In this document: piece by piece, positions 6,792 through 60,873 of the stretch
Layout: each line of letters opens with the position of its first letter
Position numbering within the stretch: the first letter of the stretch is position 1
NCBI GenBank assembly: GCA_035221665.1
Contig: CM069151.1
Coordinates: forward strand, 16,244,001-16,308,000
Source of the DNA: Okamejei kenojei
Taxonomy: Eukaryota
DNA length: 64,000 nt
Direction of reading: 5' to 3'
The notes under the pieces: model-generated
What the model saw: only the letters and a program-made list of their open reading frames with translations
Databases searched by the model: none
Told to the model about the DNA's origin: nothing
Made by a program: the position numbers and the translations under genes

Positions 6792-6954
6792 TCATTTGCC
6801 TTCACAACGTTTGCACATGCATGTCTTTGCGGATGTGTACTTGTACTTTTTAGTCTTTCGATTCTTGCAATTCAGTGTTGCTTCCTTTACTTCTTTTTCG
6901 TTTTCCTGACAGCAGTCGCAGTTCTTCACCATGTGATTTACTTTGGAATCAAAT
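6792..6954 (-). CDS. mucin last exon, cystine knot part 2
   Basis: 163 nt; FDSKVNHMVKNCDCCQE...LNC...TCMCKRCEGK*. Confidence 0.93.
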
Positions 6955-8157
6955 CTAAAAAATAGCCAGAGAACAGCAGCAGGCTTAAACAAGTCGTAAT
7001 CAAATTGGCATCATGGTTGAACACATCTCATATATAAGAACAAACTCATAACACACACAACACAAGAAAATCGGAGGAGTCAACCATCTGCACTTCAAGC
7101 CTGACCTGACATTGAATATGATCATAGTTGATCTCAATTCCCATGTCAGTTCTCCAGGGCACCCAATTCCTCATCTTTCAAAAACAATTATAAACCTACT
7201 CTTCAAACACTGCCAAAGATTTTGTCTGATTCCTTTAACCAAAGTGCATGACCTCTTTGCCACATTAAGCTCAATTTGGCAAGTTTTTACCCACTCACTC
7301 AACCTATCTATATCCTGTTGCAAATATTCTTATTGTAACATGCCCTCAAACCTATTTTATTGTTAGAGGTAAACTTAAAAATAAATTATACTCTGGCCTC
7401 CCCTCCAGATCATTCATATTGGGAACAAATGACTGGGAGCTAAGATCAGATCTTTGAGGAACTCCAAAAAAAGTCACAAAGTGCTAGACTAACTCAGCAG
7501 ATCAGGCAGCAACTCCAGAGAACATGGATTGGTGGCATTTTGACGGGACCCTTCTATGCCTTTGATCTCCATATGCTTTATCTTTACAGCATGAAAAATA
7601 CCTATTTATTCCAACTCTTTGTATTCCATGTGCTAACCAGTCTATGCCACGTAATATAAAATACTGATCATGCACAACAAAAGGAGTTAGAAGCTCAAAC
7701 TGCTTAAAGCTGTAGAAGTTAATGTATTCATTAACTTCTACAGCATTGTATTTTTGCTGGATGATTAGCCTCTCTTGCCAACACTTTAAGTCATATATGT
7801 TCTATGAGGTCAAGGAAAGAGTGTTCACTTCGCGCCCCTGTTTCCACTAATCTTTCCACCACGCACAAGAAGCAGGAGAAGCGCAAGACAGACACCATTG
7901 CACTCTGGCTGAACAACTTCTAATCTTGTGTGAGGCCTCGAAAAGAAGAAGATAAATGTTCTATCAGCCAGTATTCATTCCACTCTGTTTCTTTGTTTTT
8001 CCTTCCCCATTTTTTAAAATCTAAATGTGCTTTTATCTCTTAGTAGTGTACAAACCAAAATCGTTGATTCTCTGACCTGCCAGAAATTCTCTTTTAATTT
8101 GGGTTGATTTATAATTTGATTTTAAACACTACAAATATATTAAATCACTTCACTTAC

Positions 8158-8263
8158 ATGGAAAATGACTTGCAATATCCTTCACATGAATTCACTTCAA
8201 CGAATGCTGAACAACCACCCCGGGTTAATTCCATCACCACGGGTTGAACTTTGCATCGTTGGA
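8158..8263 (-). CDS. mucin exon, cystine knot part 1
   Basis: 106 nt; LQRCKVQPVVMELTRGGCSAFVEVNSCEGYCKSFS (CxGxC). Confidence 0.92.
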
Positions 8264-8459
8264 CTGTGGGAAAATAAAACGTGTAAATTGGTATAAATCA
8301 ATCAGTATTTAAAATGACTTTAAATCCATTATAAATATAAATATGTCTTGAAATTTAAATTTAACCAATTAAGGTGCACCTTCCACCTGGCTCTGTATAG
8401 ATTGCAACCTTGGGATATATTACAATTAATTTCCTCATTCAAATAATTAATATGACATT

Positions 8460-8725
8460 AGCAGGTGGCACAGTTGTAGAGCTGCTGCCTTACAGTGCCA
8501 AATACCTGGGTTCAATCCTGACTATGGATGATGTTTGTACAGAGTTTGTACGTTCTCCCTGTGACAGCGTAGGTTTTTTCCGGGTGTTCCGGTTACCTCA
8601 TACATTCCAGGTTTGTAGGTAAATTGGCTTCTGTAAATTGTCACCAGTATACGGGTGATCGTTGGTCGCTGCAAACTCGGTGGGCAAAGGCCTGTTTTCA
8701 TATTGTATCACTAAAACTAAAAATT
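8460..8725 (+). mobile_element. tRNA-derived V-SINE-like element
   Basis: A box ggtggcacagttg, B box gggttcaatcc, core gagtttgtacgttctccctgtgac, (ctaaaa)n tail. Confidence 0.75.
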
Positions 8726-9427
8726 AAAGCTAACAGTATATTATGAAATATAATATTTCATATGAAAGGCTGGATTTTCAGAACTGAGTATATAGCACTC
8801 TGTTAGGAACTGCATCTTTGAATGACAGAGATGGACAAAAACTATTCAAATCAATTACTGACTTTGACAAAGTCAAAGTTCCACCCTAGCTGTTTTGTTG
8901 CGAGAGCCTGTCAGTGGTGTTCCACAGATAGGGCTGCTGAAGCCTATTGGCCGTTAACACCAACATGTGGATGGCCAGCAAGATTAGCACTCTGATGCAA
9001 TTAAATTGAGTGTGAATAGCGAGAACCAAAGGTGGCTCTGAGCAATCAGCTGCATTCAGTAACATCTATCTCAAAGCTTTTGGAGCACAGCCACTTCGAC
9101 TAAACCTTCATTAATTGATTTTGTTACAGCCATGAAGGCCTAAACTGCTCACAATTTGAAAATTATGTGAAAAACTGTCAGGAATATGATTTGCTTCAAT
9201 AGCCATTAAAATAGAGAGATATAATATAATACCTCGAAACTCAGCACAAGCCTGTAAGGGTGAACTAAGTACTTGAGCAATGTAGTCACTATCGTATAAT
9301 GGAAATGGTGATTGTTGTTTCAAATGTTCTCATCTTTAAATAACATGTGTATAATTTATCATTTCTATACATACCACACAGAAGAATATATATTACAGAA
9401 TACATTACTTTGACTAAAACTACTTAC

Positions 9428-9479
9428 GTGACTCTGGACAATCATAGCAGCAGTGATATTCATCCCATTTTCTGGAAGC
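9428..9479 (-). CDS. mucin exon, VWC end
   Basis: 52 nt; ASRKWDEYHCCYDCPES. Confidence 0.9.
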
Positions 9480-10124
9480 CTAAATTAATAGAAAATATTA
9501 ATCACTGTTGTATACATACTATTTAAATTTAAATTGTTATGTGTTATGCAATTTGCACTGCAAATATAAATGTATATATTGGTGAAAATTAAATTATAAT
9601 TAAATTATGTCGGAATAAAATGTGATTTATTATATCTTTTTGAAACATGATTATTTTGTAAGGATATAATCTAAATAATTGCTCCAGTTATCTACAACAA
9701 GGATTTGAGGATGTAGGTGATTGCGATTACAACTACTTACTCAGTTTTAGTTTATTTACATTTGTAAATTTTTTATATTGTCATTTTTATATACTCTATT
9801 GTTTCTCGTGGGTATTTTGACCCAATCTGCAAATAAATGCAATACTATGTAGTGGTATATTTATCTGCTGTGTTTATAGTAAATCTATAACAATGTTTAT
9901 TGTGGTAAGCCTTGCATTGTCATCCCATATTTCCAGATTGATTTGATGATATCCATTTCCATGAACTGTTTTGGTCTGGAGGGAGAGGAAGCTCTTGATC
10001 AGTCAGAATGAATTAGACTTGTAGGATGCACTGGTGAATCAAACATAGCACACCTAACATAGATTATTGTTCTCCTTATTTTGTTCCAATGAACTGTTTT
10101 TTAACCGTACAACAGACTCCATTG

Positions 10125-19672: not shown

Positions 19673-19711
<39 letters not shown>

Positions 19712-41490: not shown

Positions 41491-41541
41491 CTGTTGTGTA
41501 AGTGGTGGTGGTGCTTGGTGGCACCGTGGGAGTTGTTTCTT
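41491..41541 (-). CDS. PTS micro-exon
   Basis: 51 nt; EETTPTVPPSTTTTYTT. Confidence 0.8.
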
Positions 41542-41880
41542 CTGGAAAATAATAAAGGCATTACATTTGTTTAAGAAGGAACTGCAGATGCTGGAAAATC
41601 GAAGTTAAACAAAAATGCTGGAGAAACTCAGCGGGTGCAGCAGCATCTATGGAGCGAAGGAAATAGGCAACGTTTCGGGCCGAAACGGGTCTGACGAAGG
41701 GGTTCGGCCCGAAATATTGCCGATTTCCTTCGCTCCATAGATGCTGCTGCACCCGCTGAGTTTCTCCAGCATTTTTGTCTACCAAGGCATTACATTTGTT
41801 TTGAATTATGTGATATAATATGTATATGTATCGGGGAGCTTGTGTTAAAAAGAGTTGCAAATGAAAATATCACCACCCAC

Positions 41881-41934
41881 CAGTTGTGGAAGTGGTTGTG
41901 GACTCAGTTGTGCTAGTTTTCGTAGATGTTTCTT
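41881..41934 (-). CDS. PTS micro-exon
   Basis: 54 nt; EETSTKTSTTESTTTSTT. Confidence 0.75.
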
Positions 41935-42495
41935 CTAAAGAGAAACAAATTCATGGACAATTAAATCATCCATGTTGAATCGTAGATTTTGAATGACCGA
42001 CGAATTCAAACGGTAATTGGACTATTTCAAAAGAGATTGTGTAGAGTGGAATTAAACTCCTTTAATTACTTCCTATCTTGCAAAAATATGGTCACAGCTG
42101 AAATGTAGGGAACACCCATAAACTACTTATTCATATCTTCATCCTATAAACTATAGAACTTAAAAATATTTCCTGAGAAATGTTGTTGCAATTATCGTTA
42201 TTATTCATGGTAGTGGAGAGATGTTTCTGTTCTTTGCTATTGGCCACAAGATATACTGCAGTCACGACACCACACTCACAAACCCAGCTCAAAATCTCAA
42301 GCTGAATAGCACAGTATTGTCAGTGCTGCACTATCTCTATCCTGCATCAGAGGACCATCAAGACTGAACCCACAGACTCTAAAATGGGATCATGAAATTG
42401 CGAAACTTGAAGCAAGGATGGGAACATGAGTGTATGAGCTCAGCTGTGATTAAAAAAAAACCCATGAGTGTACATTGAGAGAAGTTATCACTTAC

Positions 42496-42564
42496 CAGTT
42501 GTAGGACTGGTGGTAGATTCTGTGGTGGTCGTAGCTGTTGTTGTTGTTGTTGTTGTTGTTTCTT
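42496..42564 (-). CDS. PTS micro-exon, (ACA)8
   Basis: 69 nt; EE-T8-ATTTTESTTSPTT. Confidence 0.8.
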
Positions 42565-42813
42565 CTGTAAACAAATGCATACATGTCCTTTATATTCAAC
42601 TTGAAGAAAGGCACATTTGGGAGAGTAGTAACACAATCAGCATATGTGCATAAATTAAAAGAAGTTGTGGAATAACTTCAACAAAAGCCACTGCAAATTT
42701 ATAATCATCACAGCATTCAGCAGTATCATTTGCATGTGGTTCAACTCCAGCACAAGTTGGACATACTTTGGACATTGTTTTCCATCCTTTAAAATGATTG
42801 TTCACGTACTCAC

Positions 42814-43158
42814 CAGTTGTGGGACTGGTTGTAGACTCAGTTGTAGTCGTGGGGACAGTTGTAGTCTCAGTTGGCTCGCAGCAAACTCTAATTCTGTAGT
42901 CACTACAAAAGTGGCCAACATTTCCAGAGTACGTGCAGATCAATCCTATGTCTGTATTGCAGGTCACACGATCTGGTGATACACTTAGTGGCCATTCAGG
43001 ATGATTAGCAAATTGGCACTGAATGTTAGTAATTTCATCGGAAGAAGATGGGCACAATTTAGTGCCATATGGTTTCAATAATTCATAATCATTTGGAGAT
43101 CCCGTTGTTGGTGTATTTGTATTATTCCAAGGAGACCATACACCCAAACAGACTGGCA
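42814..43158 (-). CDS. CysD (WxxW) exon, copy 1
   Basis: 345 nt, phase 1-1; VPVCLGVWSPWNN...DYE...C...IQC...VTC...GLIC...CSDYRIRVCC plus Thr tail. Confidence 0.93.
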
Positions 43159-44245
43159 CTGTAATGTAAAGAAAGAAAACATAAGGCAAACTTGTATAAA
43201 ACAATACAAAGTGGGAAATATAAACATAAATATAAAAAACAAGATTTGCGAAACATGGTTGTGCATCAAAATGAATCTTCCAAATTACAGTTTAAATGAA
43301 AATGGGAACAGTAAAATGGGAATAATAACAATATGTTTGGGGAACTGTTGATTAATCTGAATTAAGATACAACCTCAAGTATCAGATAGGGAAACAGTCA
43401 TTGCCAGTGCAGAACAGAACAATGGGGAAAAGCATAAAGCACAAACGTGAGATGTCACTTATCAGGCAGCTGACTGCAGCTGAGCACTAACTATTGCATG
43501 ATTTTAACAGCCGGATATTCTTTCCACTTTGATGGGTTGGTCTCAGCGTGCTATTGAAGAACATTATTGGAGTAATTGCGCTGCCTCACCATATCACCTT
43601 CAAACATGCTACGTACTGTATATGGTGAAAATTGGTAGGCAAGAGGGAAATGGCAAAAGGGTAGCTGCTCCAGGATAATATATGATAATGGAACACGTTT
43701 GCTGTCAATTCATAAAACAGAATCAAGAGTTTAAAAAAAAGAGTCACTGCGCCCTCCTCACCCAGTTTGCCAGGTGAGGAGGGGGCAGTGAACCCCCGGC
43801 AGGACCAAAAACAAGACCTGACAGAAGGCAGATGAGCTCCTAGGGAGCCAACGGCCATCCACAATTCAATAGAAGTTGCGATCACTGTTGTACATAGCAT
43901 TGTAAGGCACCGTGCACAAAATACATCAGGAATAATTGATTATAGACATATATAATGGCAATCTAAATAATATTAGCACAGGCACCTAGCAAGAAGCATG
44001 AACTATATTTTGATAGAATCAGCAGGTGCCACCCACATTAAAACCTCTGCTGATTTTAATACCTTTTAGTTAAAGAAAATTGTTTCAACTTATCTATTAA
44101 AAGAATTTGCAAGCTTGTACTTAATATGTTTGACAATAACCTCCTGTGAGAGTATACCAAATAGGTAGAGAAGAAAACAAATGGATTTTCATTGTGATCA
44201 GTTGAGGTTTCAAAATAAATATATATTGAAAAAGCCAACACTTAC

Positions 44246-44290
44246 CTGTTGTGGTTGGAATGCTGGTTGATGTCACAGTTGATGTTTCTT
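44246..44290 (-). CDS. PTS micro-exon
   Basis: 45 nt; EETSTVTSTSIPTTT; CAG/GTAAGT. Confidence 0.8.
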
Positions 44291-44609
44291 CTGGAAAATA
44301 TACAAACAAATTCAAATCACAAAGTCAACTCAATTCTTATTTTCATATATACGAAAAAATGAAAGTAGAAACTACTGGAAGTACTTGGTAGGTCAAGCAG
44401 CATCTGTTAAGAATTAACATTTGAGACTGATTATATTTTATAAGTACTGGAACATTTAGAATGAAACAAAATGTGTGGTGCAGAGAAATAGGGGAGGATG
44501 TAACGACCAGGAGAGATTGAGTGAGCCAAATAGTGACTGAAAGATGGAAGGAAAGGAGAAGAAAGAACAAGGGGTATGTCTGGAAAAAGTGTTACTGCAA
44601 AGAAACAAA

Positions 44610-45249
44610 TCTATCTATATATACCACTAAATCTCTCATCTTGTTTATTTGTTTGTTTTGATGTGTGCACGTGCCTGAAATACAGCCAAAACTGTACACG
44701 ATAGCGCTACAATTATTGGCCCACCTTACTCACCATTGTCCTGTGATGTGCAGTATCAATTTCCCTTCAGATTGATGTGATATTTTACAAGTTATTGACA
44801 TTTAAAACTTAAAAAAAATTTAAACCCACACTTGCTGTCATTACTTGACTGGTGTCACAAATGGCACACAACGGGTCCTCAGCCATGCCTGAGCAGCTGG
44901 GGCCTTTGACAATTTTCAGATCGGCACTTTTATTTTTTGCGTGCACTTTCCTAGCCTCACAACAGGGACCCAGCGGCTCCATGGGCAAGTTTCCTATTTT
45001 ACAAACACCTCCATCAGGCCTCTATTTCTTTATTAACTTTAAGTGAATTTCTGCCGTCAACGGCACAACTTTGACCACCGCTGTCACGCCCGCGCACTTG
45101 GCCAGGTATTCACGCTTACGCAGTTGGGGAAAGCTTACCGGGCCTGCCGCCATTTTGAGATCGCCATTTTGACTTGCGTCACAATGGGAACAGGTTAGTA
45201 GTAATTTAGCGTTGGGTATTTGGGCCCAACGGGTTCGTGCTTGGTCTAG
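44610..45249 (+). mobile_element. non-autonomous Helitron
   Basis: 5'-TC...CTAG-3', inserted between A and T without TSD; subterminal hairpin gggcccaacgggttc; empty sites aaacaaa|taaaatct at ~32427 and ~38548. Confidence 0.88.
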
Positions 45250-45941
45250 TAAAATCTAAAAATTATCAGGAATGGCAGTGAGTATAGAAGAAAAGGGAAG
45301 GGAAGGTCCACAGCAGAGTGGAGACCAAAACAGATTTACTGCAGTATATATTAATTATGAGAATTAAAGTGTCTGTCATTTAAATGTTCCCTATATTTCC
45401 ACTTTGTATCTCCAACACAGTTCCAATAGAGTTTGGTATTCAGTGTAAGTTACAGTGCCTCATCTTCCAACTACAAATATGGCTTTAGGACCCAAGAGTA
45501 AATTTAAATGTTTCAGATAATCAGCTGGTTTTGTATATCACATTTGATTTTTAATCTCTCTCCATTATGGTGTCTCAGATTTCAGTTGTATGCTTACATT
45601 TACAAAACCTTCTGGTTATGAAGTCTCATCTAAACGTTCTCTTGCACCTCTGCATTTTGACCATCATGCAGAGGACTTTCAGTAAAAATTGCAGTGAAAT
45701 ATGGTAAGCTGAAATGTATTGGACAGTATTGGCAGTGCTGCAGTTTATACTACCCTGCGCCAGAGGACCATCCAAACTAAACCCATGGATTCTGAATTGG
45801 GATCACGAGGTACTGGGCTGAAATTTTGAGACTTGAAGCAGGGAGGAGAAAGTCCTGTTGCAGAACACGAATGTGTGTTGAGTATGAACTCAGCTGTTAT
45901 AATAGATCCACGAGTGTACATTGAGAGAGGTTATCACTTGC

Positions 45942-45995
45942 CAGTTGTGGGAGTGGTGGTAGATTCTGTTGTGGTTGTGGATGTCGTTGTTTCTT
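45942..45995 (-). CDS. PTS micro-exon with GC donor
   Basis: 54 nt; EETTTSTTTTESTTTPTT; donor GCAAGT. Confidence 0.6.
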
Positions 45996-46383
45996 CTGCA
46001 AACAAAGACATGCACGGCTTTTACATTCAACTCGAAGAATAACACATTTGAGAGAGTAGTAACAAACTCAGCATATATTGTATACATTAGAATAAATATA
46101 ATATCAACAATATCATTACAATACTACATTCAGCAGTAATATTTGTAATGTTTCAACCAGATTAAGCAGGACATATATTAGGCATTACTGGCCTTCCTCT
46201 GTGCTGCAATAAATCTCCATTCTAGCTTGGATCTGATGACTTTGAAATGTGATGAAATCATGAACTGGTGAGGTTAAATTATGGTGCACAAAGCAAGGCA
46301 GTTACAACTTGCAAGTGGGCTTGTATTTCAGCATTGTTGCGTTAAAATGCCTTTTAAAAGTACTGAGACAAGGCGTCATTCAC

Positions 46384-46438
46384 CAGTAGTGGGGCTGGTG
46401 GTAGACTTAGTTGTTGTCGTGGGGACAGTTGTAAAAAA
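46384..46438 (-). pseudogene. relic exon: truncated tail of a CysD-type exon
   Basis: TTVPTTTTKSTTSPTT plus a GT donor matches the 3' end of the CysD exons, but the CysD part is absent; the nearest AG gives 55 nt (out of frame). Confidence 0.55.
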
Positions 46439-46662
46439 CTATGGCAGATTAACACAGTCTTGGCAGTGCTGCACTATTCCTATCCGACACCAGAGAACCA
46501 TCTATAATGATTCTGAAATGGGATCATGAGCTACTGAGCAGAAATTGCAAGACTTGATGCATGGAGGAGAGGGCCTGTCACAGAACACAAGTATGTGATG
46601 TATATGCGCTTAGCTGTGATATAAAACCCCATGAGTGTACATTGCGAGAAGTTATCACTCAC

Positions 46663-46722
46663 CAGTTGTGGGACTGGTGGTAGATTCTGTTGTGGTCCTC
46701 ACTGTTGTTGTTGTTGTTTCTT
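46663..46722 (-). CDS. PTS micro-exon
   Basis: 60 nt; EETTTTTVRTTTESTTSPTT; CAG/GTGAGT. Confidence 0.8.
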
Positions 46723-46974
46723 CTGTAAACAAATGCATACACGGCCATTACATTCAACTTAAAGAATGGCGCGTTTGAGAGAGTGGTAACAAAATCAGCA
46801 TATAATGCATAAACTTAAAATAGATTGTGCAAAATAATGTCAACAAATCATTACAAATTTACAACCGACACTACATTCAGTGGTAATATTTGTATGTGTT
46901 TCAACTTTGACTTCTGGACATACTTTGGGCATTACTGTCCTTCCTTTGTGGTGTATCAAAGCACCATTCTAGTG

Positions 46975-47255
46975 TAGGTTTAGAGATACAGCGTGGAAAG
47001 ATGCCCTTCAGTCAACCGAGTCTGCTCGTCCATCAATCACCCGTACACTAGTTTTATTCTGTGAGCTAGGAGAAATTTGTACAGTAACCAATTAACCTGC
47101 AATCTTAGGAAAGTGGAGTGGAAATCGTTGCACCGGGAGAAAACCCTTGCGCTCACAAGGAGGACGTACAAACTCTGTACAGACTGCACCCATTGTCTGG
47201 ATGGAACCCGGATCTCTGACGTTGTAAGGCAGCAACCCTACTGTTGCTGCACTGT
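46975..47255 (-). mobile_element. V-SINE-like element
   Basis: Reverse complement of the family at 8460 and 10125. Confidence 0.65.
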
Positions 47256-47421
47256 TTGAATATCAAGTCTGAAACGCGATAACATCCCATGAACTACTGA
47301 CGAGAAATTGTGGCGCACGAGCAAGGCAAATAAACGTCAGTTACAACACGAGTGGTACTATATTTAAGCATTGTTGTGTTAAAATGCCTGTTAACAAGTA
47401 CTTTCAAAAAGCATCTCTCAC

Positions 47422-47481
47422 CAGTTGTGGGACTGGTGGTAGACTCAGTAGTGGTTGTCTCTGTTGTCGTTGTTGTTTCTT
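47422..47481 (-). CDS. PTS micro-exon
   Basis: 60 nt; EETTTTTETTTTESTTSPTT; CAG/GTGAGA. Confidence 0.8.
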
Positions 47482-47602
47482 CTGCAAATAAAACCATTAC
47501 ATTCAACTTGAAGAATGATTGAATTGAGGGGAAGTGGAAGCTGAAATTGAATGACTGAACCTAATGGCCGGTATTACCCTACTGACAGAGGCGATCCCTC
47601 AC

Positions 47603-47650
47603 CTGTTGTGGAGGTGGTGGTGCTTGGTGTTACCATGGTAGTTGTTTCTT
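47603..47650 (-). CDS. PTS micro-exon
   Basis: 48 nt; EETTTMVTPSTTTSTT; CAG/GTGAGG. Confidence 0.78.
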
Positions 47651-47783
47651 CTGGAAAATAATAAAGGCATTCAATTTGTTTTGAACAAAAATTATATGTA
47701 TAGATATTTTTTTTGCATATGTTCTCTTGGAGAGCTTATCTTAAAAATATTTGCAAATGATCACTGGAAAAATAACCACCCAC

Positions 47784-47837
47784 CAGTTGTGGAAGTGGTT
47801 GTGGACTCGGTCGTGCTGGTGGTTGTAGATGTTTCTT
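47784..47837 (-). CDS. PTS micro-exon
   Basis: 54 nt; EETSTTTSTTESTTTSTT; TAG/GTGGGT. Confidence 0.75.
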
Positions 47838-48044
47838 CTAAAGAGCAACAAATTCATGGACAATTAATTAATCAGTCTTGAATAGTAGATTTTGAATGAC
47901 CGGCAAGAACATATTACCCAATTTAAAATCGATTTGGCAAAGTAGAAATCAGTCTCTTTCATTCCTTAACATCTTTTAGCCAAGAAATTTGGCTAATACA
48001 TGTATTCATGTTCATATATTTGTACTAATAAATGTATTTGGCTA

Positions 48045-48225
48045 ATAGATGTATTCCAGAGAGAGTTGGATATAGCTCTTAGAGCTAACGGAATCAAGGG
48101 ATATGGGGAGGAAGCAGGAACGGGGTTCTGATTCTGGATGATCAGCCATGATCATAGTGAATGGCTTTGCTGGCTCGAAGGGCTGAATGGCCCACTCCTG
48201 CAACTATTTTCTATGTTTCTATGAA
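48045..48225 (+). mobile_element. CR1 3' end
   Basis: gatcagccatgatcat..gctggctcgaaggg..(tttctatg)n tail. Confidence 0.75.
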
Positions 48226-49336
48226 ATTGTTCTAAAATATGTTCATTGTTGATATGTAGGGAACATCCTAAACAATTTCATCTGCATAAAGATTGCCAAA
48301 TTGGCTCATTTTGTTAGAAATACTGAATCGATCATCGTCATTAGTCCAAAGATGGAGACATTTTACCATTCTTTTACAAATTTTCTGACAGAATTTTGTA
48401 CTTCAGAACACTCACAAACCAACTCTAAAAATTAAGGCAGGATAACACAGTTTGGGCAATGCTGCACCATCCCTATCTTGGATCAAACATGCAACGTATC
48501 TAGATTAAAATCCACATGCGTCTGATGTGAGATATCCTACAGCAAACCCAAGTGGTAGATTCCCAGATTAAAAGTGGGTGTATTACTCCTATCTGAGTAC
48601 TTCACCATATTCACTATTAGATTACTGCTTTTAAAATGGCACAGGTACTGCATGATCTGAAGCCGTTTGAGTCATTATCCCTTTACAGTTCTTTGATAGT
48701 CACTCAAATCAACCTCCATGTTCATTTCAATATACGTATACGTATATCTTGGCCTGGGTAACCTTCAGGACACATCATCAACATTTCTCTCGGCAACATT
48801 TATATTACATTTCTTTGTACAAGGAACAATATTAAATAGAAGCATTGTTATCAGTTTAAAAGGAATTTGTGAAAAGGGTAGGGAGCTGCAATATTTAACA
48901 ATATCAACATTATTTAACAATAGAGGGAAACTGGCAGAAAATAACTGTGGAAAACAGAGTTGAGCAGAGATGTCTACAAGATTCTTCATTAAAAGGTGTA
49001 CTAGAATGGAAAAGATGTGAAGGGGCAATGGTTATTATGATCATCCTTCCATTATATAAATATTCAGATGTAACCCAAGGCCTTGGATGCAAGAAATTGG
49101 GCATTGTAGATTTGACCTTCACGTCAGCTTGATAAGTCTATCACAATATTGAGGGAGGCTCGAATTAAAGATTTACTGACACTGTGGTGACACATTAACT
49201 CTCTAGCAGATGTAGTGGGAGGAAATGAGAAGGAAGAGCAGGGATCAGAATGGTGCTATTATGTAGGGTAAGGGAAGGTTGAGATGAAGGGTTGACAGTC
49301 CAGTAAAGCAGCTGAGAAAGGATCATTGTGATGGGA

Positions 49337-49367
<31 letters not shown>

Positions 49368-51053
49368 CAGATTAAAGTGCCAGGGTATTAGTGGAGACCA
49401 AGGACATTGGGTAGTACATTAAATTCAGCAGGTTTTAGGTGTTTATCTGACTTTGTAATTTCATTTTAACAGGTAAACTTGAATCTGCTCATAAAATATA
49501 TCTTTTCAACAGCACATTCCAAATTATTGCAAATTTGTGTTTAATGTCATTTATATTTTAATTTTGCCTTTGGTTCTTTTGCCAATTATCCTGGGACCCC
49601 TTTTTAGTATTTATCTGGTAGATCATTGGCCACAATGTATACAAAAGGCATGCATCACAAATCATTTCATGAACTTTACATTGCAGAAAGCCAGTTTGAT
49701 CTCACATCTGTTTTAGTTCATATTTTCATTGAGATCCTGAAGTCATAGAATCATGCAGTTCTCCCAAAATAGCAAAATGGTAGATTTATTGATTAAGGAC
49801 AATGTCATGGCATTAGTCTGAGATGATGTTACTGACAGTTTAAAAAACCCAAAATTAAAGTAAAAATTAAAAAAATATTAAGAAACATTTGGATAGGTAC
49901 ATAGATTGGATAGGTTTAGAAGGAAATTGGCAAATGCAGAGGTGGGATTAGCGTGGATGGGGCTGGGCATTGGCTGATTTCTGCCACTCAGAAATGTAGG
50001 TCCACACTAAAATAGTAACAACACAAAATCTGAAGTAAAAACTGATGAATATTTAAAACTAACATTTACATTTCTCTGAATAAGCTTTCTGAAAAATGTG
50101 TCTTACTATCCCCCCCCCTTTTTTTTTTAACAGTTTTAGAATTGCTAAATATAATTAAACAGACATTATATTCAGTTGTCAATTTTACTCAAAAAGGACA
50201 TAGAACAATACAGCACAGGAACGGGTCCATCAACTCACTATCTCTGTGGCGAACATGATGCCGAGACCAATCCTTATCTGCCAGTACATAATCCATACCC
50301 TCCATTTCCTGCATATCCAGGCGTCTATCCAAAAGTCTCTTAAACACCACAATTGTATCTGCCTCCATCACTACTCTCAGCAGTGGGCCAGGCACTCAAC
50401 ATCCACCACACACACATCCTCTCTAAACGTTGCCCAGCCACAAAATGGAGAATTGTGCAGGCAGAGATTAGTTACAGGCAGAGGAGATTAGTTGAACTGA
50501 GCATCGTGTGATCCAAAAGGCCTGTTATTGTGCTGTACTGTTCTATGTGAGGATGTTCCTGATATACATTTATTATTCTTATCAACATTTCGCCAAGCTG
50601 GCAACATGAAACCCTGACCTTATGTGCTTTTCACAAGCGAGTTTAAAACATAAGCCAAAGCTCAGACTTTATCCATACAAATTGCCTCTTACACCTACAG
50701 TTGCTTTGGGCTTGTTCCTATGAGGCAGGAGCTGTGAAAGTGAATGGAGATGAGACCTATTTGACTGAATCATATATTTGCCTTGTGGAGCCAAGAGAGA
50801 CTCTCTTTTGCCCTTTTTACACAATGTTTGTCATCTCTTTGAGACCCAGGTGCAGTATGCAGATTAAAGTTACTGATCGTCAACATCATGAAACGTGTTG
50901 GAAAATGATAACTTGCTTATGAATCCCATTTATAATTATTATGTCCAAAAGTACAGACATACCAATGTCCAGTTTCACCTCTGATCTTTCGAAATCTGTT
51001 CTTACCAAATTGTAAATATTACATGTCATAACCTGTAACTAGTATCACCTTAC

Positions 51054-51146
51054 CTGGACTAGTGATTGGTGTAGAAATTGTTGAAGTTGATGTAAGTGGA
51101 GTTGTGGTCAACAGTGTTGTAGATGGAACAGTTGTGGTCTTTATTC
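51054..51146 (-). CDS. mucin first PTS exon
   Basis: 93 nt, phase 1-1; RIKTTTVPSTTLLTTTPLTSTSTISTPITSP. Confidence 0.85.
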
Positions 51147-51579
51147 CTGTTGTTATGAACATGAACATAATAAAACTTCAGTCCTTATCTATTTCTGATA
51201 TTTCCTCAAGGCAACAACCATGCTACTGTAATTTAAGTAATATAAAGTTGCCCTTATCCATTTCGTAGTCAACTACCAAAACATTTGGGATACAGATTCA
51301 AATTTGCACTTACCAAAATGGAAAATAAGCAAATAAATATATATATAGAAATGCAAACAAAACAACAAATGTTATGTTTTGTCACTGTGTCAATGGGGTT
51401 GGCAGTCACAGCCATGTCTTCTTCAGACCAAAAACACATAAACAGATGTCTCAGAGTGCAGTGTTGCTGCGCTCTTCACCTGTGAGTGCAATGTGGGGAG
51501 TCGCAGTAGCCCTGGCCATCTCCTCCAAAGTAATCCCTCAGTGTTTACTCCACTTCTCCCAGCCACTGAGGTTTAACTC

Positions 51580-51850
51580 ATTAGTTTAGTTTAAAGATAC
51601 AACATGGAAACAGGCATTTCGGCTCACCGAGTCCACGCTGACCATCGATTATCCATTAACATTAGTTCTATGTTATCCCACTTTTTCATTTGTTCCCTAC
51701 ACATTAGGAGCAACTTACAGAGGCCGATGAACCAACAAACCCGCCGTCTTTGAGATGCAGGAGGACATGGAGGACACGGAGGAAAGCTACCTGGTCACAG
51801 GGAGGTGAGCAGACTTCACACAGACAGCACCAGCTGCCCCACTGTGTTGC
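51580..51850 (-). mobile_element. V-SINE-like element
   Basis: (tttag)n tail and core reverse-complementary to the family at 8460. Confidence 0.65.
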
Positions 51851-52095
51851 CCCATTAATTCCTTCTACGTCGCTTTTCTCCCATGAATCCCAACCCTTGA
51901 ATTCCCAAATAAACCCACTCAGTAAACCCTTCATGTTCAGCAAGCTTTGTGCATCAGACAGTACGACTCACAAATTAATCCCCGGCAGTGCTACGATCTG
52001 AGACATGAGTTCACATATCATAGGACTAGAGGGAGCATGGCAAAGGTGGGCAGCTCAGCTGGGACTCCTAACCCAATCAACAAAATGACTCATGT

Positions 52096-52257
52096 TCAAA
52101 TCTTATTGCCATACAATATTGAGTGATTAAAAATTGATGAAACTTGTTGTTTCATCTGGGTATAATGTTGGTCTCAAATCTTATTGCCATACAATATTGA
52201 GTGACTAAAGATTGATGAAACTTGTTGTTTCATCTGGGTCTAATGTTGGTCTCAAAT
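52096..52257. repeat. 78-bp tandem duplication
   Basis: tcaaatcttattgccatac... at 52096 and 52174. Confidence 0.9.
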
Positions 52258-52519
52258 GTTAAATAAGAATGGTGGAATTCTCTTGTCATCACTGATGACA
52301 AGAGAAATAAGAATTATCTTGTAATCACTGATAAATTGGTTTAAAATGAGAGAAAAACATTCTCCACTTATAACATGGGATTCAAGAGGAAAAGGACATT
52401 GTGTTGCAGAAAATGACGATTACAGCAAATGCAATCACTCTATAATGCAGGGGTTATCTGTGTTGGGTCCATTTTGCCTGCATGCATTAGTGTTTCTTAG
52501 CTCTGCTATAACTTCAGTA

Positions 52520-53050
52520 CAAGTTGTAGGTGACAAATCATCCTCTACAATAATCCCCAATATGGGTGCTCTGCAAGAATGTGTTCTCAGCTCCCTTCAT
52601 TGCTCCTTATTCACCACGATTGTGCAGCCCCGTACATATTTAACTCAATTTACAAATTCATGGGTGACACCACCGTACTGGCACGGATACCAAAATAATT
52701 ATGGTACATAATTATACAAATAACGGAGTACAGGAAGGACATTGAGAACCTTGTAACCTGGTGTCGCGTTAATAACCTTTCTCTCAATGTCAACAAGGCA
52801 AAGGAGATAGCGATCAACTTCAGAATTCAGGCGAAGTGCTACACATACATTGCTACACATACATTGACAGCGCCAAAATAGAGATAGTTGAAAGCTTCAA
52901 GTTCCTAGCAGTAAATATCACGAGCAACTTGTCCTGAACTAGCCGTATCAAAGCAAAGGCTATGAAAGCACACCGATGCCTCTACTTCCTCAGAAGGCTT
53001 AGCAAGTTTGGCATGTCTTCAACAACTCTCACCAACTTCTACAGATGTGC
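52520..53050 (+). mobile_element. degenerate Rex1/Babar LINE fragment
   Basis: Remnants of GALQECVLS, NNLSLNVNK, VESFKFL, LYFLRRL. Confidence 0.7.
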
Positions 53051-53236
53051 TAATTATTCACATCTGGCATTTGAAAAGTAGTGTTTTGGAAATATTTAAA
53101 CTGAAGATATAACTACAACTGCTGATACTATTAATATTGCACTGCAAATAAGCAAACATTCTCCTTTATCGAAAAACAATAACTAATTAAAAATATGCAT
53201 TCTTTTAACAGGTGAATGCTGAAAGTTACTACTTAC

Positions 53237-53268
53237 TTTGGCAAGTAGTGATTCCATGAAGGCATGTA
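53237..53268 (-). CDS. mucin exon, E3 end
   Basis: 32 nt; (C)TCLHGITTCQ, phases fit both neighbours. Confidence 0.85.
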
Positions 53269-54062
53269 CTGTCAACAAAAAGAAAGATGTTACAAATAAA
53301 ACAAACTAAAGAACTACAAACTAGTCTAAAGACATATTGTGTTGCAATGGTTCAACCTCTCTGGAAAGATGGAATTGGAAAGGTAAAAACTCTGTTAGCT
53401 CTGAAATCACCACCAAAAACCATAGTCCACAGGAGGATTTAAAAATGTAATAGAGGCAATGTATGGTCAAGGGAATAGATTCTTTACTAATAGCAGAATG
53501 AGACATAAGAAATTAATACATTTTGTTGGTTTTTATTCATGGGTAATCACAGACCACCTGCACTTTATTGTTGCAACTCATGGAGAAGTTAACCTTTAAA
53601 GGAGCAATAGCCTTCACTTAATGTTCATAATTCACAACAAATATTACAATATAGTGTAACAATGAAGGATAATTATTAAGGGATGGACTCTCAGAAAGAA
53701 TAGTCCCTGATTATTGTTGGACAGAGAGAATAAAGAAAATGAAGAACTTTTTGCAGAAGGAACAGAAAATGAATATAACTGCAAACTGTAGATTAAAGTC
53801 ACTGAAGCAAGTGAGGGAGGGTGGTGGGTGGGAAGGAATTTGAAAACAATTATTCTGGCCTTTGTTCAGGTGTGAAATTATTCTAGGCTGCATTTTATAT
53901 TTCAATTATTAAAATAGCTAATGTCACTATTTAAACCTCAAAAATTATTTATGGCATTATTAAGGGAATATTTGTAAAACCCAATTTTTTGGCATTTATC
54001 TTGTTTTTTTTCTTTTAATATTAGAACAGTGATAAATACATTTACTGATATGACTACTTTAC

Positions 54063-54204
54063 CATTCTTCACAATCACTTATTGTTATTTCACCAGGTTG
54101 TAGTATTCTCCCATCATTATAACATGTGCACTGTGGTAGTGTAACACATTTCATAATATTTTCATCCAAGTAAGGAGCATTATCTGGACACTTGGCATAG
54201 CAAC
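54063..54204 (-). CDS. mucin exon, TIL3/E3
   Basis: 142 nt; [47 protein letters not shown]. Confidence 0.93.
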
Positions 54205-54487
54205 CTAAAGTAGTGAGAAGTAAAAATGACCATCAGGAGAAACAGGAAGGTTGTAAATGCAGGAGATCTTGACACCAATAAAATGTATCTCCATCTCAAT
54301 ATGCACAAATCTCCAATGCATGAATTTTTTATGAAGATTTATAAAAATATATATACTTTAACTGAGTATGTGTAATGAATTGCATAATGAATTGATTATT
54401 ATGATTTTTAGTTTTAAGAACCTAAAAGTATTGTTTAAAAAATTTGTAAAATGATTGTGACATATTTGAATACATTCTAAACAGCAC

Positions 54488-54601
54488 CTTCTAGATTTGC
54501 AGAGTACTTTTTCCGTGTGCATGTTTTTGTTGTTGTTGTTCCACACGGCTGATAATGCCAACTGCAGTCACCAAGACTGTTATAATAGTCACAGTATACA
54601 G
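54488..54601 (-). CDS. mucin exon, TIL3
   Basis: 114 nt; [38 protein letters not shown]. Confidence 0.92.
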
Positions 54602-55269
54602 CTGGAGAATAAAAGAAACAATCAAATTGTAATTTGGGCTTGGTTATTTATTGCCCAAAATGAGCACAATATTGCATGGCAAATAGTCACTGTATATTTA
54701 TTTTATAGATATTGGTCTGTGAACTGGAGTTAAGAACTCCAGTTGGACTCTCAGACATCTGTCCTTACCATGGCAGATACTCGGACAAATTTATTCTCCT
54801 ATTCCAAAGAGTATACAAGTTGATAAATGAGTTGACTTATGTAGTAGGTAAAGGAGAATTGTCATGAGCACCAATACAATCAACCTGCAAAGTATATATT
54901 TTTAGATAAAGCGGACCAACAGTCACATTGATAGATGGAATGATACGTGCATTTATTTTTAAGTGTATGCCAAACTTGGAGGATAGAGACTGAATGTTGG
55001 CAGAACATCAAGTTCAAATTAATAGCCACAAATCTCATTAATAAGCAAACAGATGAGATTTAATGAAACAAATATTGTGGATTAGTTGCAGATTAGCAGG
55101 TGTTGGAATATTTGGCTGCGTGAGGTTCTGAATGTATTTTCTTGATGAATCAAGGATTAAAAGTGTACAGTGATAGTGACCTACCTTTCACTGAAAGGAT
55201 CAAAATGACCTGCCTTTCATTGAAAGGATCAAAATCAGTTTTGATATGTTATCCATCGTGAGCAAAAAG

Positions 55270-55574
55270 TGGTTCAGTAAACAGTGCACAAATAATTACC
55301 CGAGAGTATCCTCCAAACAGAATCAAGGTATCAAGGTCAGTTTATTGTCACATGTACTGATTAAGGTGCAGTGAAATTCAAATTACCATACAGCCATATT
55401 TAAAAAAAAGCAACAAGACACACAACTACATAAAAGTTAACATAAACATCCAACACAGCGGATTCCCCACATTCTTCACTGTGATGGAAGGCAATAAAGG
55501 CAAATCTTCTTGAAACTTTGATTCTGTTTGGAGGATACTCTTGGATAATTAATTGTGCATTGTTTGCTGAACCA
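55270..55574. repeat. 57-bp inverted repeat enclosing a retroelement 3' tail
   Basis: Arms at 55270-55326 and 55518-55574; insert is the minus-strand tail ..gtgacaataaactgaccttga. Confidence 0.8.
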
Positions 55575-55852
55575 AGCAGAAGATGGAGGATCTCGTGTCA
55601 AAAGAGACAGGGAATTGAAGAAGGAAATATGGTTTCTTTATTGCAATTACAAAATGACACAGATTTTAAACAGCACCAAGCATCAATCTGGACCTTGAGA
55701 ACACAAGAGTCTGCAGATGCGGGAATCTGGAACAACAATCTGAATAATTATGGTACTCTATGGATCAATGTGTTCTGCTATCTATAAAAATATGTTGATG
55801 AGCCCATATACCTTAATTGTTCTCTACAAGGAATACAGAACTTTAGACTTAC

Positions 55853-56009
55853 GGCAGAATTCAGGGGTTCTCCAGCGAATGCAAACATCAGCTTTGTTGC
55901 AAGCCTCTGCGTACACAGCAATAGCAGTACACAAACCCTGGTATTTTCCCTCCATATCACAAACGCAAGCTTCTTGGACACAAGCATCATAAAATGCGAT
56001 TGGGTTAAC
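55853..56009 (-). CDS. mucin exon, C8-3
   Basis: 157 nt; [52 protein letters not shown]. Confidence 0.95.
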
Positions 56010-56088
56010 CTGATAAAGAGCCACAATGTCAGAAATCATGATTGCATTATGGATTATATTTAAATTTCAAATTTAACTGGCATATTAC

Positions 56089-56328
56089 CTTTTTATGACA
56101 AGCTTGAAAGACCGGGCCAGTAATTATGCTGCACCTCTTCTGAGCCCATGCTAAACAATATGGATTGTTATCACATGGGTATATTTCACTGACTGTGTCA
56201 GAGCATGACTGCATGGACTTCCAACTGTTCCCAAAGGCCACAAAGCTGGTCACCAAGGAGTTCCCCTTCGTTGTTAAGTCGTCTTCAATGTTTTCATTGA
56301 AATTTCCACAAAGGCCACAAACTTTATT
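56089..56328 (-). CDS. mucin exon, VWD3 end/C8-3
   Basis: 240 nt; NKVCGLCGNFNENIEDD...FGNSWK...CSIITGPVFQACHKK. Confidence 0.95.
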
Positions 56329-59235
56329 CTTACGTATGTAAAAAAAAGCAAAACTAATGTTACTATTCTAAATTCACAATTCAAATTTCCTACTTTTTCC
56401 AAGTTAACCCAATACAAATGTCAGAATTATCAATCTTTCATTGCAATAAACCACCTAGTCGCTTCTTGAGATCCAGTATGGCACTATACAAACATAATTA
56501 GTTAATTTTGACCTAGTCTTTGATCTTTTATATAATTTTCAGTGTTCCTCGCTTCAGAAGCACAGCTTTTGTCTACTCCAAAAATAAATGCAATCATACA
56601 GAGAGCGAAGCATCAAGAGGGTTTTACATCACAACCAGAACCAAAGACATTAGCTATAAAGAGGTTATAATTTAGTTTGTGAATGGCAATAAATAAAGCA
56701 AGTTATTTCACTCTTTATTACCTATGGATTAGTATGGTTGAAAATTCAAAGTATTTTCAATAAACTGCTAAATTATACAATATGGGGATTTTGGGCAGTT
56801 CTGGACCCTGCACCAGAGGGCATGTTGTCCCACTGTCTGATAAATTACAACCTAATCTATTGGTTGAAGGCCTTCACCATTGTCACAACTTTTCATGATA
56901 AAAGTTGGCACAAGTATATAAAAGAAGATTAAACTGCTAAATGTATAATTAAAAATGAAGAATAATCCAAGACTATTATCTGATCCAATTATATTTCATC
57001 TTTATTTTCAACAAACTCTTGGCTTTGAATCCTCATGATCTTTACCACATATACATACATTGTACACATTTTACTGTTAATGTTTAACTCCTCAAAGCAT
57101 CAAGCCATCCTTTGAATGAAATGAATGAATCAAAATCTGTATGTGAACTGTTGTCTTTAAATATATACAGTACTTGCAGACTCTTGAAAATAGATGGCAT
57201 CAAAGGGGTAATTTTAAAACAATTCCTCTTGTATTTTTGCTTCCATTGAAGTGATTTATCATTTCATATAATGCTTTTACTTTATGTATACATATGTTTA
57301 ATGGTAGCCTTTTGACAGGTTTGAGGAAGCCTTTTGAAAGGTTTGAGGGAGCCTTTTGCACCACCCATGTGGATTCTGTTTTGCCTTTCCACACTGCCAA
57401 TTGACTTAGAGACAAGATTTTGAGTTGGGATTGTTCCAGTGAAGGTTTTCACCTTGGCCTCTCGTTACATCCTGGAACACTGCATTGGGAGCTTCAGGTT
57501 CACAATAAATGAAAATCAAAAAACTGAAGATACTGGAAATCTGAAACTAAAACAAAATCCTTTAAAAACTCAACAGGTCAGGAATGGAAAGAGAAACAGT
57601 TAATTTTTCAGGTCGAAGGCTGAAGATGGGTCTGAAGATGGGTCTTTGACCTGAAATGTTAACTCCTTCACTTTTCACAGATGCTGCCTAACCTGCTAAG
57701 ACTTTCGAGTATTTTTAGTTTTTTTTAGATTCACATTGGTTATTCCCAGCTTGACAAATCCAGAAGCTTATATACCAAAGATGTCATAAAAACATATTTG
57801 CTTAAAAATCTCCAGTTCCGTGTTGGTGTTTTATTCCATCTGTGCACATGGAGAAGTTTTGTCTATGAGGGAAGTGTGATAATAATTTCTGGATATTTTT
57901 CACTGTATTGAGAATTTGATAGGACATTTCCTGTCAATAGCCAGTCTTGTGACCCCAATGTCAATTTCGCCCCAAAGCCACACAGGAGGACGTTAGTTTC
58001 TATTAGAGTTATAGAGTCATACAATGTGGAAATAGGCCTCTTCAGCTCAACTTCTCCGCGCCAACCAACATGCTCCATCTACACTTAGAAGGCATTTGCC
58101 CATATCCTTCTAAACCTATCCTATCCATGTACCTATCAAAATGTCTCTTAATATATATTTATCAATAATGTCATCTCGGACTAATGCCGTGACATTCTCC
58201 TTAATCAATACGGCAACACCCTCTCTACCATTTTGCTTTTTCGGCAGAGCTGTATGAAAGTCATATAATGACTTAACCTGCCGAATTTAATGTACTACCC
58301 AATGTCAATCTCCACTAAGACCCTGACCCTTTAATCTGCATTAAAACCCTAACACCACACCCCCCCCCCCCCACCCCCTCCACTCCACATCACAATGATC
58401 CATTCTCAGCTGATTTACTGGACTCTGTCAACCCTTCATCTGCTCGTCTCAACCTTCCCTTACCCTGCATAATAGCACCATTCTGATCCCTTCCATTCTC
58501 TTCCTTCTCATTTCCTCCTACCACCACATGTTAGAAATCTGCTAGAGCGTTAGTGTGTCACCACAGTGTCAATAACTCTCTAATTCGAGCTTCCCTCAAT
58601 GATGTGATAGAGCTATCAGGCTGACGTGACGATAAAATGTGCAATACCTAATTTTGTGCAACCAAGGCCTAGGGCTGCATCTGAATTTTAACATAATGGA
58701 AGAATGACCATAATAACCATTGCCCCTCACATCTTTTCCATTCTAATGCACCTTTAAAAAAAATTGTGGACATCTGTGCTCAACTCTGTTTTCCATAGTT
58801 ATTTTGTGCCAGTTTTCCTCTATTGTTAAACAATGCAGCTCCCTACCATTTTCACAATTCCTATTAAACTGCTGGCAAAGCTTCTAAGTACTATTTAATA
58901 TTGTCCTTATACAAAGAAGTGTAGGTTATTGTTCAGCTGCTTCTTAAAGTTGAATAGCTGATAATGAGCCCAATAATAAATGAAAAACCATAGTTTCATC
59001 TCATTTATTTTGAATCAAATGCTGCATTGCTCAGGGAATTTAGTCCCAAATTATGTGTTGTCCATTCCATCTACAGCTCAATTGTCTACGAGCATTTAGT
59101 TAAACATTTTTCACACCACATCCACGTTTCTCATATGAATTATGCCGCACAAATTTTGTTTTACAATTTCTCATTATGTTTTCTCTATCAATAAACAGAA
59201 ATTAAGGAAACATTTTAATTTACACTCATACATAC

Positions 59236-59424
59236 CTTCCATCTGGGGTCCAATGTGATTGAAAATCTTGTATTTTTGTCCCATATCACAGTTATCCCAT
59301 TGGAAAATGTTATGACTAAGTAAAGTCCAACATTGTGAATTGTATATAAATTTTCTGTGCACTGGTTTTCGCCAAGGGATATTTCACTCACTCTATTTCC
59401 ACTCAACAGAATTATTTCTTTATC
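59236..59424 (-). CDS. mucin exon, VWD3
   Basis: 189 nt; DKEIILLSGNRV...VGLYLVITFSNGITVIWDKNTRFSITLDPRWK (within ORF 59215..59406). Confidence 0.95.
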
Positions 59425-59565
59425 CTATAAGAATATATTTGAAAATACATTGATTTATAACATGCTGAATAAACTAAATTAAATCATTGCAAGGATCCAT
59501 TTGGATGCTTTATTTTAAAACGGCATCTTACGCATTCTAATTGTTATAAATCAAAGGGCATATAC

Positions 59566-59670
59566 CTCAAATATGATTCTGATGTTTCTTGAACATGTCA
59601 CTCCATTTTCACAGCAGGGAACACTCTCGGTCAGTATTTGGAATGTGCCAATCTTTCGCAGACATTGGTC
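59566..59670 (-). CDS. mucin exon, VWD3
   Basis: 105 nt; [35 protein letters not shown]. Confidence 0.95.
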
Positions 59671-60499
59671 CTAAAATTAAGATAACTTGATTAATTTGGT
59701 GCAGGGTAATTTTAACCAATCATAATCTGGATTGGCAGAGCCAGCTCAATAATTCCAGTATAATTTATAGTTCATCAAGATTTATATATATTTTCATTAT
59801 CCTCTGAGCTCAAGAAAATATAAGGACAAAGGAAGGGAAAAAGACAAGGTCATAATAACAGCTCTTGAAACCATTAGCACCAAGTGATAGTTAACACTTT
59901 CAAAAGCATTTAAGGTTTGCTGAAGAACTATTCATACTATAGAATCTCAGATCATTTAATCTGATTAATACATTTTGTTCATTTTTACCTTCTCATTTAT
60001 ATCTCAGAAGCAATATCAGAGATTCCAGATTACACTCAAAACCATTCTTGCTGATTGTGTCTGAGACAATTTGCACTTTTAAACATGCGATCTAATATGC
60101 TGCTTCATGTTTAGAATCTCATCTGTCATAATTTTGTAGTGTGAAATTCTTTGAGTGATTAAACAAGCAAATGTGTGAACAATTCCAGTTGGACAGATGT
60201 ATTACTCCCTCTCCTCCAACAGCTATCAATAACAACAACCAAAGGCCGACCAAATGTCAAAAGTAGTTGCTAGGACCGATCCATTTTAAATGAACAAATT
60301 ACTTTAGAGAAATTTTTAATTTCAGTTAAATATTTTAAATACTAATTACAATCATTATATCAATTAACAATAATCTTTTGCATATCTGCCTAAACTTAGA
60401 AAGAATGTAAAGATTTTTAATTTAAGTATTATCATATATGTTTACAACTAAATGAAAAAGAAAAAAAATGCACATTGAATATGATGTTCTCTATCTTAC

Positions 60500-60638
60500 C
60501 TCAACAAAGATATATTCACAGTTGCCATCAAAAGTGTATCGCTTTCCATCAAAGGTCATGTAATGTCCATCTCCATAAACATGGCATGTCTTTGGACATG
60601 GATCATTGGTACATTCCCATGTGCCAATTTTGCATGTG
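60500..60638 (-). CDS. mucin exon, E'/start of VWD3
   Basis: 139 nt; TCKIGTWECTNDPCPKTCHVYGDGHYMTFDGKRYTFDGNCEYIFVE. Confidence 0.95.
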
Positions 60639-60724
60639 CTACAATAGAGAAGACATAGTAATATCTTTCTACAATTCCATGCTGTTAAGGGCTGTTATTT
60701 TGTTTGACATTTGTCTAGGCTCAC

Positions 60725-60873
60725 CACTTATTGCAGTCCCTTTTGATTGTTTCTCCAGGCCCAAAGGTTTCACCTCCAAATACACAAGGACAGTGAGATG
60801 GTGCAATGCATCTTCCACTGGAATCTTCCACCAAACCACCAGGGCAGACACAGCCCGGGACACATGGGTTTGG
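60725..60873 (-). CDS. mucin exon, TIL'/E' (D' region)
   Basis: 149 nt, AG/GT; PNPCVPGCVCPGGLVEDSSGRCIAPSHCPCVFGGETFGPGETIKRDCNK. Confidence 0.92.

Follow-up and report, generated by a model that had tools for sequence, protein, structure and literature searches.

A MUC19-type gel-forming mucin gene with CysD and D4 domains in the skate Okamejei kenojei

Introduction

CysD domains are regarded as a mark of the MUC2 and MUC5 mucins, and MUC19 as a stripped-down mucin. Which family, then, claims a gene that combines the D3 assembly and C-terminus of MUC19 with CysD domains and a D4 assembly? A sequence-only reading reported such a gene in a 64,000-nt stretch of the 2.76-Gb genome of the skate Okamejei kenojei (hereafter, the window; positions 16,244,001-16,308,000 of contig CM069151.1, or C21) and offered two explanations, an ancestral jawed-vertebrate MUC19 architecture or a chimeric mucin class. 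We find that the skate gene is a true, intact MUC19. Our preferred reading, to which we assign a rough probability of 0.57, is that it is one of a set of MUC19 copies that multiplied in cartilaginous fishes at the ABCD-LRRK2 locus, has a MUC19-type D4 of its own and is predicted to encode a secreted gel-forming protein, and that its CysD likely goes back to the ancestor shared by MUC19 and MUC2/5 and disappeared later in bony vertebrates.

Results

The gene occupies the minus strand of C21 and reads as one open frame of 67 exons and 2,638 codons, whose only stop is the terminal one; intron borders are GT-AG in 65 of 66 cases and GC-AG in the other. Exon limits were set by eye and by homology, and the domain order along the gene is signal peptide, D1, D2, D'D3, a PTS region with CysD exons, D4, one VWC and a cystine knot (CK). 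Exons 1-19 (signal peptide, D1 and D2; ATG at C21:16,336,716) lie upstream, beyond the end of the window, and were taken from the neighbouring assembly; the signal peptide was judged by eye from a hydrophobic first exon, and exon 2 was placed tentatively, by its splice signals. Within the window (positions without a contig name refer to it, and to the minus strand unless noted), the gene model places the D' exon (TIL'/E', exon 20 of 67) at 60873-60725 and the D3 assembly (VWD3-C8-TIL3-E3, exons 21-28) at 60638-53237, the latter identified from the model, the tree and a comparison of cysteines. Exons 59670-59566, 56009-55853 and 54204-54063 of the minus strand contain the three D3 motifs quoted in the sequence-only reading. 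Thr-rich PTS micro-exons and three CysD exons sit between D3 and D4, and neither a second D1-D3 nor a stop codon occurs between D3 and CK. The full set expected of a gel-forming mucin (signal peptide, D1-D2-D'D3, PTS and CK) is found in one frame. A Pfam scan of 12 single exons left 3 without a match and scored CK and TIL4 weakly per exon; it identified the first CysD (PF13330, E=3e-14), VWD4 (E=7.7e-14) and C8-3 (E=1.1e-13), and all three CysD exons scored above the cut-off. The best protein match to one D3 exon was a Rhinoraja model (93%), followed by those of other rays and sharks.

Trees of D3 and of the tail, together with synteny, bear out the assignment of D3 and the C-terminus to MUC19. 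In the D'D3 tree (57 of 68 rows used, 11 near-redundant ones having been dropped; no named MUC6 was among the rows), the skate gene, 19 chondrichthyan models and 14 bony-vertebrate MUC19s form one clade (support 100/99), separate from MUC2/5 (97/97) and from three skate genes that we read as MUC6. A TIL1-D3 tree (22 of 30 rows used) divides the MUC19 side from MUC2/5 (100/100) and unites all nine chondrichthyan rows (100/99). The skate D3 also carries the MUC19 signature: its PCC loop contains an additional Cys, and of the counterparts of MUC2 C1088, C1090 and C1130 only the last is retained. Human MUC19 is described as having no cysteines equivalent to MUC2 C1088 and C1090 (PMC6739602, accessible text). 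At the C-terminus, the gene model confirmed the reported single short VWC (exons 63-65, 15123-9428) and CK (exons 66-67 with the stop codon, 8263-6792; the Pfam Cys_knot match is weak and below the cut-off), and the VWC-CK tail clusters with MUC19 (100/99; 30 rows, one long-branch warning). By our reading, camel and teleost MUC19 models have a longer tail, with two such modules against the single VWC of the skate.

The synteny is that of MUC19. The gene, at C21:16.25-16.34 Mb, lies between LRRK2, whose propeller exons (profile PF23748) are 0.5 Mb away at C21:16.84-16.87 Mb, and an ABCD-family transporter at C21 16.24 Mb, which starts 8 kb past the mucin stop codon and which, by human gene order, we take to be ABCD2. 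The skate gene is upstream of LRRK2 on the opposite strand, and another MUC19 paralogue is in the downstream position. A PF16095 search did not detect LRRK2 on C21, though PF23748 did, and a YAF2/RYBP search gave matches on C16 and C19 and none on C21; neither SLC2A13 nor CNTN1 was found. The MUC2/5/6-type genes of the skate are elsewhere, on contig C18 (45.9-47.4 Mb), and a CUE-domain search did not place TOLLIP beside that cluster. On the same contig, at C18:46.40-47.44 Mb, the strand that does not carry MUC2 has four D3 exons of a MUC6-like type, and the three included in the tree fall in one clade. Measured against MUC2/MUC5, the C21 gene has CysD within its PTS region, as they do, but its D3 and D4 group elsewhere and it lies outside their cluster. 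Nor does it fit the description of mammalian MUC19 as having no D4 and no CysD. That description is of a mammalian subtype and not of the MUC19 family, as a D4 is known in fish MUC19 (PMC4948705, accessible text).

The D4 block (a pre-D4 Cys module, VWD4, C8-4 and TIL4; exons 55-62, 27913-17025) spans 1,566 nt, is in phase 1 on entry and exit, and was identified from the model, Pfam and the tree; VWD4-C8-TIL4, reported earlier to share the frame, was located at 26769-17025. In an unrooted tree of 32 rows, the skate D4 groups with five chondrichthyan and seven teleost MUC19 D4s (100/100), and the skate's own MUC2 and MUC5 D4 fall on the opposite side. The skate D4 is altered in several respects. 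GRRH stands in place of GDPH, a motif also missing in two copies of another paralogue and in skate MUC2 and MUC5; the domain lacks two cysteines that all 8 comparators keep; and C8-4 contains an in-frame insertion of ~95 aa (approximate limits 18890-18560), with a 48-bp Ser/Gly/Pro/Arg repeat in 4.4 copies, which none of the 8 comparators has. A DCSSLE-like segment beside the insertion is also repeated. In the accessible text of two papers, some spiggins (fish MUC19) have a fourth VWD (PMC4948705) and spiggin B has four VWD domains (PMC4989455); hence, a D4 in fish MUC19 is already published and not new.

These trees bear on whether the gene is a recent chimera, that is, a new mucin class in which a MUC19 N-terminus and tail flank a middle (CysD and D4) from MUC2/5. 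The domain names do run in a MUC2/5-like order. Yet the D4 falls on the MUC19 side of a tree that includes skate MUC2 and MUC5 D4, which contradicts such an origin, the CysDs form a separate deep clade (see below) and the layout is common to sharks and rays, so that we find a recent chimera hardly credible. The chimeric class proposed from the sequence fails for both D4 and CK, which are MUC19's own.

The three CysD domains reported in the frame were recovered as 345-nt exons with Pfam and gene-model support, at 43158-42814 (phase 1-1), 37074-36730 and 30953-30609. The surrounding PTS region of the gene model (51146-28650) consists of 23 micro-exons, each 45-93 nt long and in phase 1-1, with splice joints at several sites, and encodes, without the CysDs, 504 aa (59% Thr, 12% Ser, 12% Glu and 7% Pro). 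A further micro-exon copy (29702-29649) has one extra acceptor base compared with its two sister copies; with its acceptor shifted by 1 nt it was left out of the gene model, and it is likely skipped or an assembly error. Self-comparison revealed a tandem array (28469-44610) of 6.1-kb units, each with one CysD exon plus PTS micro-exons. The units are ~98% identical, introns included, which indicates that the three CysDs, separated by 1-8 nt differences, are recent copies of one exon; CysD copy number may depend on the assembly. The skate CysD matches the solved CysDs of MUC5B, MUC5AC and MUC2 (E values of 4e-9 to 9e-3), and the ESM Atlas returned generic WxxW clusters only. Elsewhere, on C32:16.08-16.19 Mb (minus strand), CILP-type WxxW domains of two exons each are repeated in tandem dozens of times, and the stretches searched there gave no mucin D domain; this array is possibly a gene built almost only of WxxW repeats.

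No sequencing run matching the gene is recorded as RNA. Contigs from four runs guessed to be RNA, all from relatives, were compared with window positions 42400-61000, a stretch beyond which D4 lies; run X10 was flagged as probably DNA. D3 exons were together on single contigs in 3 of the 4 runs. The CysD acceptor at 43158 was used in contigs of all four and was joined to predicted PTS donors at 44246, 46663 and 47422, its exact partner exon being uncertain because the PTS micro-exons resemble one another. Among the contigs listed for this stretch, none bridges D3 to CysD. Might the full D3-CysD-D4 protein not be made, owing to skipping of D4 or CysD exons, to mis-assembly of the tandem region or to the presence of two genes? 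The near identity of the tandem units, a D4 block that can be removed in frame, and a D4 with an insertion and without GDPH and two cysteines would be in keeping with it. So would Pristis model P0009, the closest in D3 and tail, in which PTS is joined directly to VWC, either through real loss, through skipping or by annotation choice. We nonetheless consider this explanation improbable: every D4 exon is open and flanked by canonical splice sites, the frame runs from D3 to CK without interruption, contigs of the relatives show splicing between PTS exons and the CysD acceptor, and five independent public models carry the D3 motif, CysD, D4 and CK in one chain.

The public models compared that carry the MUC19 D3 motif number 45 from chondrichthyans, 23 from ray-finned fish and 66 from tetrapods. 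A CysD is present in 18 of the first group and in none of the other two, and a D4 in 8, 13 and 0, respectively; many of these models are partial, with D4 or CK reached in 15 of the 23 fish and 16 of the 66 tetrapod models, and the absence of CysD outside chondrichthyans rests on 89 models. CysD and D4 co-occur in 8/45 chondrichthyan models, and CysD, D4 and CK in one chain in 5/45. The CysD-bearing MUC19 layout is common to sharks and rays, and the skate gene is not unique. Public chondrichthyan mucin models are automatic annotations with inconsistent names, those in the D3 clade being called mucin-2-like, mucin-5AC-like, mucin-6-like or mucin-19-like (P0001, P0010, P0081, P0083-P0085, P0281). 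The closest to the skate gene, Rhinoraja P0001 (91% over D'D3), ends within the PTS region. A protein filed under Salmonella enterica (P0210) is 82% identical to camel MUC19 and is probably host contamination of a public assembly.

Our literature search, to which subscription papers were external, found no description of CysD in MUC19, although figures or web tables of PMC4948705 may show it. The accessible text of that paper counts three Muc19 paralogues in the chimaera with no mention of CysD, and the word is absent from its supplement text; the portions consulted of PMC11207715, PMC3680472, PMC10707392 and PMC6425839 contain nothing on CysD in MUC19. As to whether the architecture is already described for non-mammalian MUC19, it is for D4 (PMC4948705 and PMC4989455, accessible text), whereas for CysD we found nothing in print. 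The CysD-bearing MUC19 expansion appears to be the new, undescribed part.

Nine MUC19-type D3 exons on C21:16.30-19.15 Mb indicate about nine MUC19 paralogues in this genome. CysD matches and D4 first exons, assigned by position and strand and counted as lower bounds, lie near at least 6 and at least 8 of the 9, respectively; the profile search gave no CysD match near 3 of them. In one paralogue group, a single CysD stands right after D3 (model P0010) or after ~50 aa (P0019, P0023) and heads a long PTS exon, as in MUC2. The CysD1 of MUC2 is positioned shortly after D3 (PMC7599080, accessible text). On C18, we searched the MUC5-type (45.88-45.97 Mb) and MUC2-type (46.02-46.08 Mb) stretches of the skate and found one CysD match at the MUC2-type locus and none at the MUC5-type locus, in 110 kb without gaps. 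Two near-identical CysD and D4 sets 92 kb apart (C21:18.34-18.35 and 18.43-18.44 Mb) accompany one detected D3, and represent a partial duplication or a second gene with a D3 not listed.

The ninth paralogue (C21:16,929,000-17,085,000, plus strand) lies immediately downstream of LRRK2. It comprises D1-D3, a PTS array with dozens of micro-exons in phase 1, VWC and CK; neither CysD nor D4 was detected in it, and one 500-N gap falls within its PTS array. Direct orthology of this D4-less gene with tetrapod MUC19, which D'D3 alone did not decide, is ruled out by the TIL1-D3 tree. The paralogue nests there within chondrichthyans (100/99), a position suggesting that its mammal-like layout likely arose independently.

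The window also contains a 469-aa open frame at 3772-5178 (plus strand) that presumably resembles a LINE reverse transcriptase, and the intronic and flanking stretches hold many fragments of short and long interspersed elements (SINE/LINE).

Discussion

Where did the CysD of MUC19 come from? In an LG+G4 tree rooted with CILP-type domains, a single clade (98/93) takes in all 18 CysDs sampled from chondrichthyan MUC19, with the full set of 34 MUC2/5 CysDs as its sister group (97/91), and the clade holds in a mixture-model tree (27 of 57 rows; 95/91). On the evidence of these trees and of an approximately unbiased (AU) test, a recent transfer from MUC2/5 is excluded, and an old transfer is still allowed. 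We favour descent from the MUC19-MUC2/5 ancestor because one paralogue group has its CysD right after D3, as in MUC2, and because CysD loss looks frequent, the search having given no match around three paralogues or at the MUC5 locus of the skate.

Several observations weigh against this origin. The mixture-model tree does not settle the position of MUC19 CysDs among MUC2 CysDs, the AU test keeps a clade of MUC19 CysDs with the skate MUC2 CysD (p=0.206), and the alignment offers only ~100 columns. With CysD in none of the ray-finned fish (0/23) or tetrapod (0/66) models, a single gain explains the distribution as economically as a single loss; both bichir-family models in the sample end just after D3, and MUC19 from gar, lungfish, coelacanth and cyclostomes is absent from it. 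Exon phase does not help to tell the CysD origins apart, since CILP exons also have phase-1 entry, and D3, CysD and D4 were not seen together on any one transcript. The AU result, the unsettled position and the restricted distribution would also suit a single acquisition of a CysD exon, in the cartilaginous-fish stem and by exon shuffling from MUC2/MUC5, by a genuine MUC19 that already had a D4 of its own type, after which the exon diverged and multiplied; the symmetric 1-1 phase of CysD exons would lend itself to such a gain. This history is possible but, in our view, less likely, as the LG+G4 tree puts the MUC19 CysDs outside all MUC2/5 CysDs, the would-be donors sit on a different contig (C18), and the CysD1-like position after D3 in one paralogue group would have to be a coincidence. 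We retain descent from the common ancestor as the preferred reading. The ancestral jawed-vertebrate architecture envisaged in the sequence-only reading is supported for D4 and, for CysD, favoured but unproven.

Ancestral CysD descent can be extended to a fuller history, for and against which we see even chances. The MUC19 of the jawed-vertebrate ancestor would have had the full MUC2-like layout, which cartilaginous fishes kept, expanding MUC19 into the chief CysD-rich family among their mucins (about nine genes here, versus a single CysD in MUC2 and no match in MUC5); teleosts would have lost CysD and tetrapods both CysD and D4, and one skate paralogue would have become mammal-like via in-frame loss of phase-1 blocks. 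As phase 1-1 units, the PTS exons, the CysD exons and the whole D4 block could be duplicated, skipped or deleted in frame, a modularity that would account for the mixed layouts among paralogues.

By analogy with characterised mucins, the product is predicted to be a secreted, O-glycosylated, disulfide-linked polymer. Tail-to-tail dimers would form via the cystine knot, as in MUC2 and VWF, and head-to-head links through D3, where only the C1130-type cysteine is available. Homology further suggests that the Thr-rich PTS would be densely O-glycosylated and that CysD would make non-covalent contacts, as in MUC2, which needs CysD for filament formation (PMC7599080, accessible text). The first skate CysD is 142 aa from the end of E3, versus about 40 aa in MUC2, and the filament-clasping role of the MUC2 CysD may consequently not apply to it.

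If our preferred reading is true, it was loss in bony vertebrates that produced the CysD-based split between MUC2/5 and MUC19, and many of the mucin-2-, 5- or 6-like proteins annotated in sharks and rays are MUC19 paralogues, a relabelling that could change the interpretation of mucus proteomics in sharks. Proteins that occur in nature with both a CysD and a D3 without the C1088 bond would also allow a test of the part that CysD plays in mucin assembly. Mechanistically, nothing beyond the usual gain and loss of domains within a known family is required, and the CysD-bearing MUC19 bears on the evolution of gel-forming mucins.

Comparison with known mucins

Mammalian MUC19 shares with the skate gene the D3 signature and clade (54-58% identity over D'D3, with the C1088/C1090 equivalents missing), the LRRK2-linked locus and a short VWC-CK tail; its PTS region is also spread over many small exons. 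It differs in that its models have no CysD or D4, its tail has two VWC-like modules and it is single-copy, versus about nine copies in the skate genome. Teleost MUC19, including stickleback spiggin, has the MUC19-type D3, a D4 of the same clade and a tandem expansion, which the TIL1-D3 tree shows to be independent, but CysD is in none of the ray-finned models. The order D1-D2-D'D3-PTS/CysD-D4-VWC-CK and the CysD matches are held in common with MUC2, MUC5AC and MUC5B, whose D3, D4 and tail nevertheless belong to another clade; the skate's own MUC2/5/6-type genes on C18 keep the C1088/C1090 cysteines and have a longer C-terminal VWC series. Public chondrichthyan models come closest, falling in the same D3 clade, although their names are inconsistent and the nearest of them stops in the PTS region. 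With D4 already known in fish MUC19 and the layout frequent in sharks and rays, the skate gene is less singular than it first appeared.

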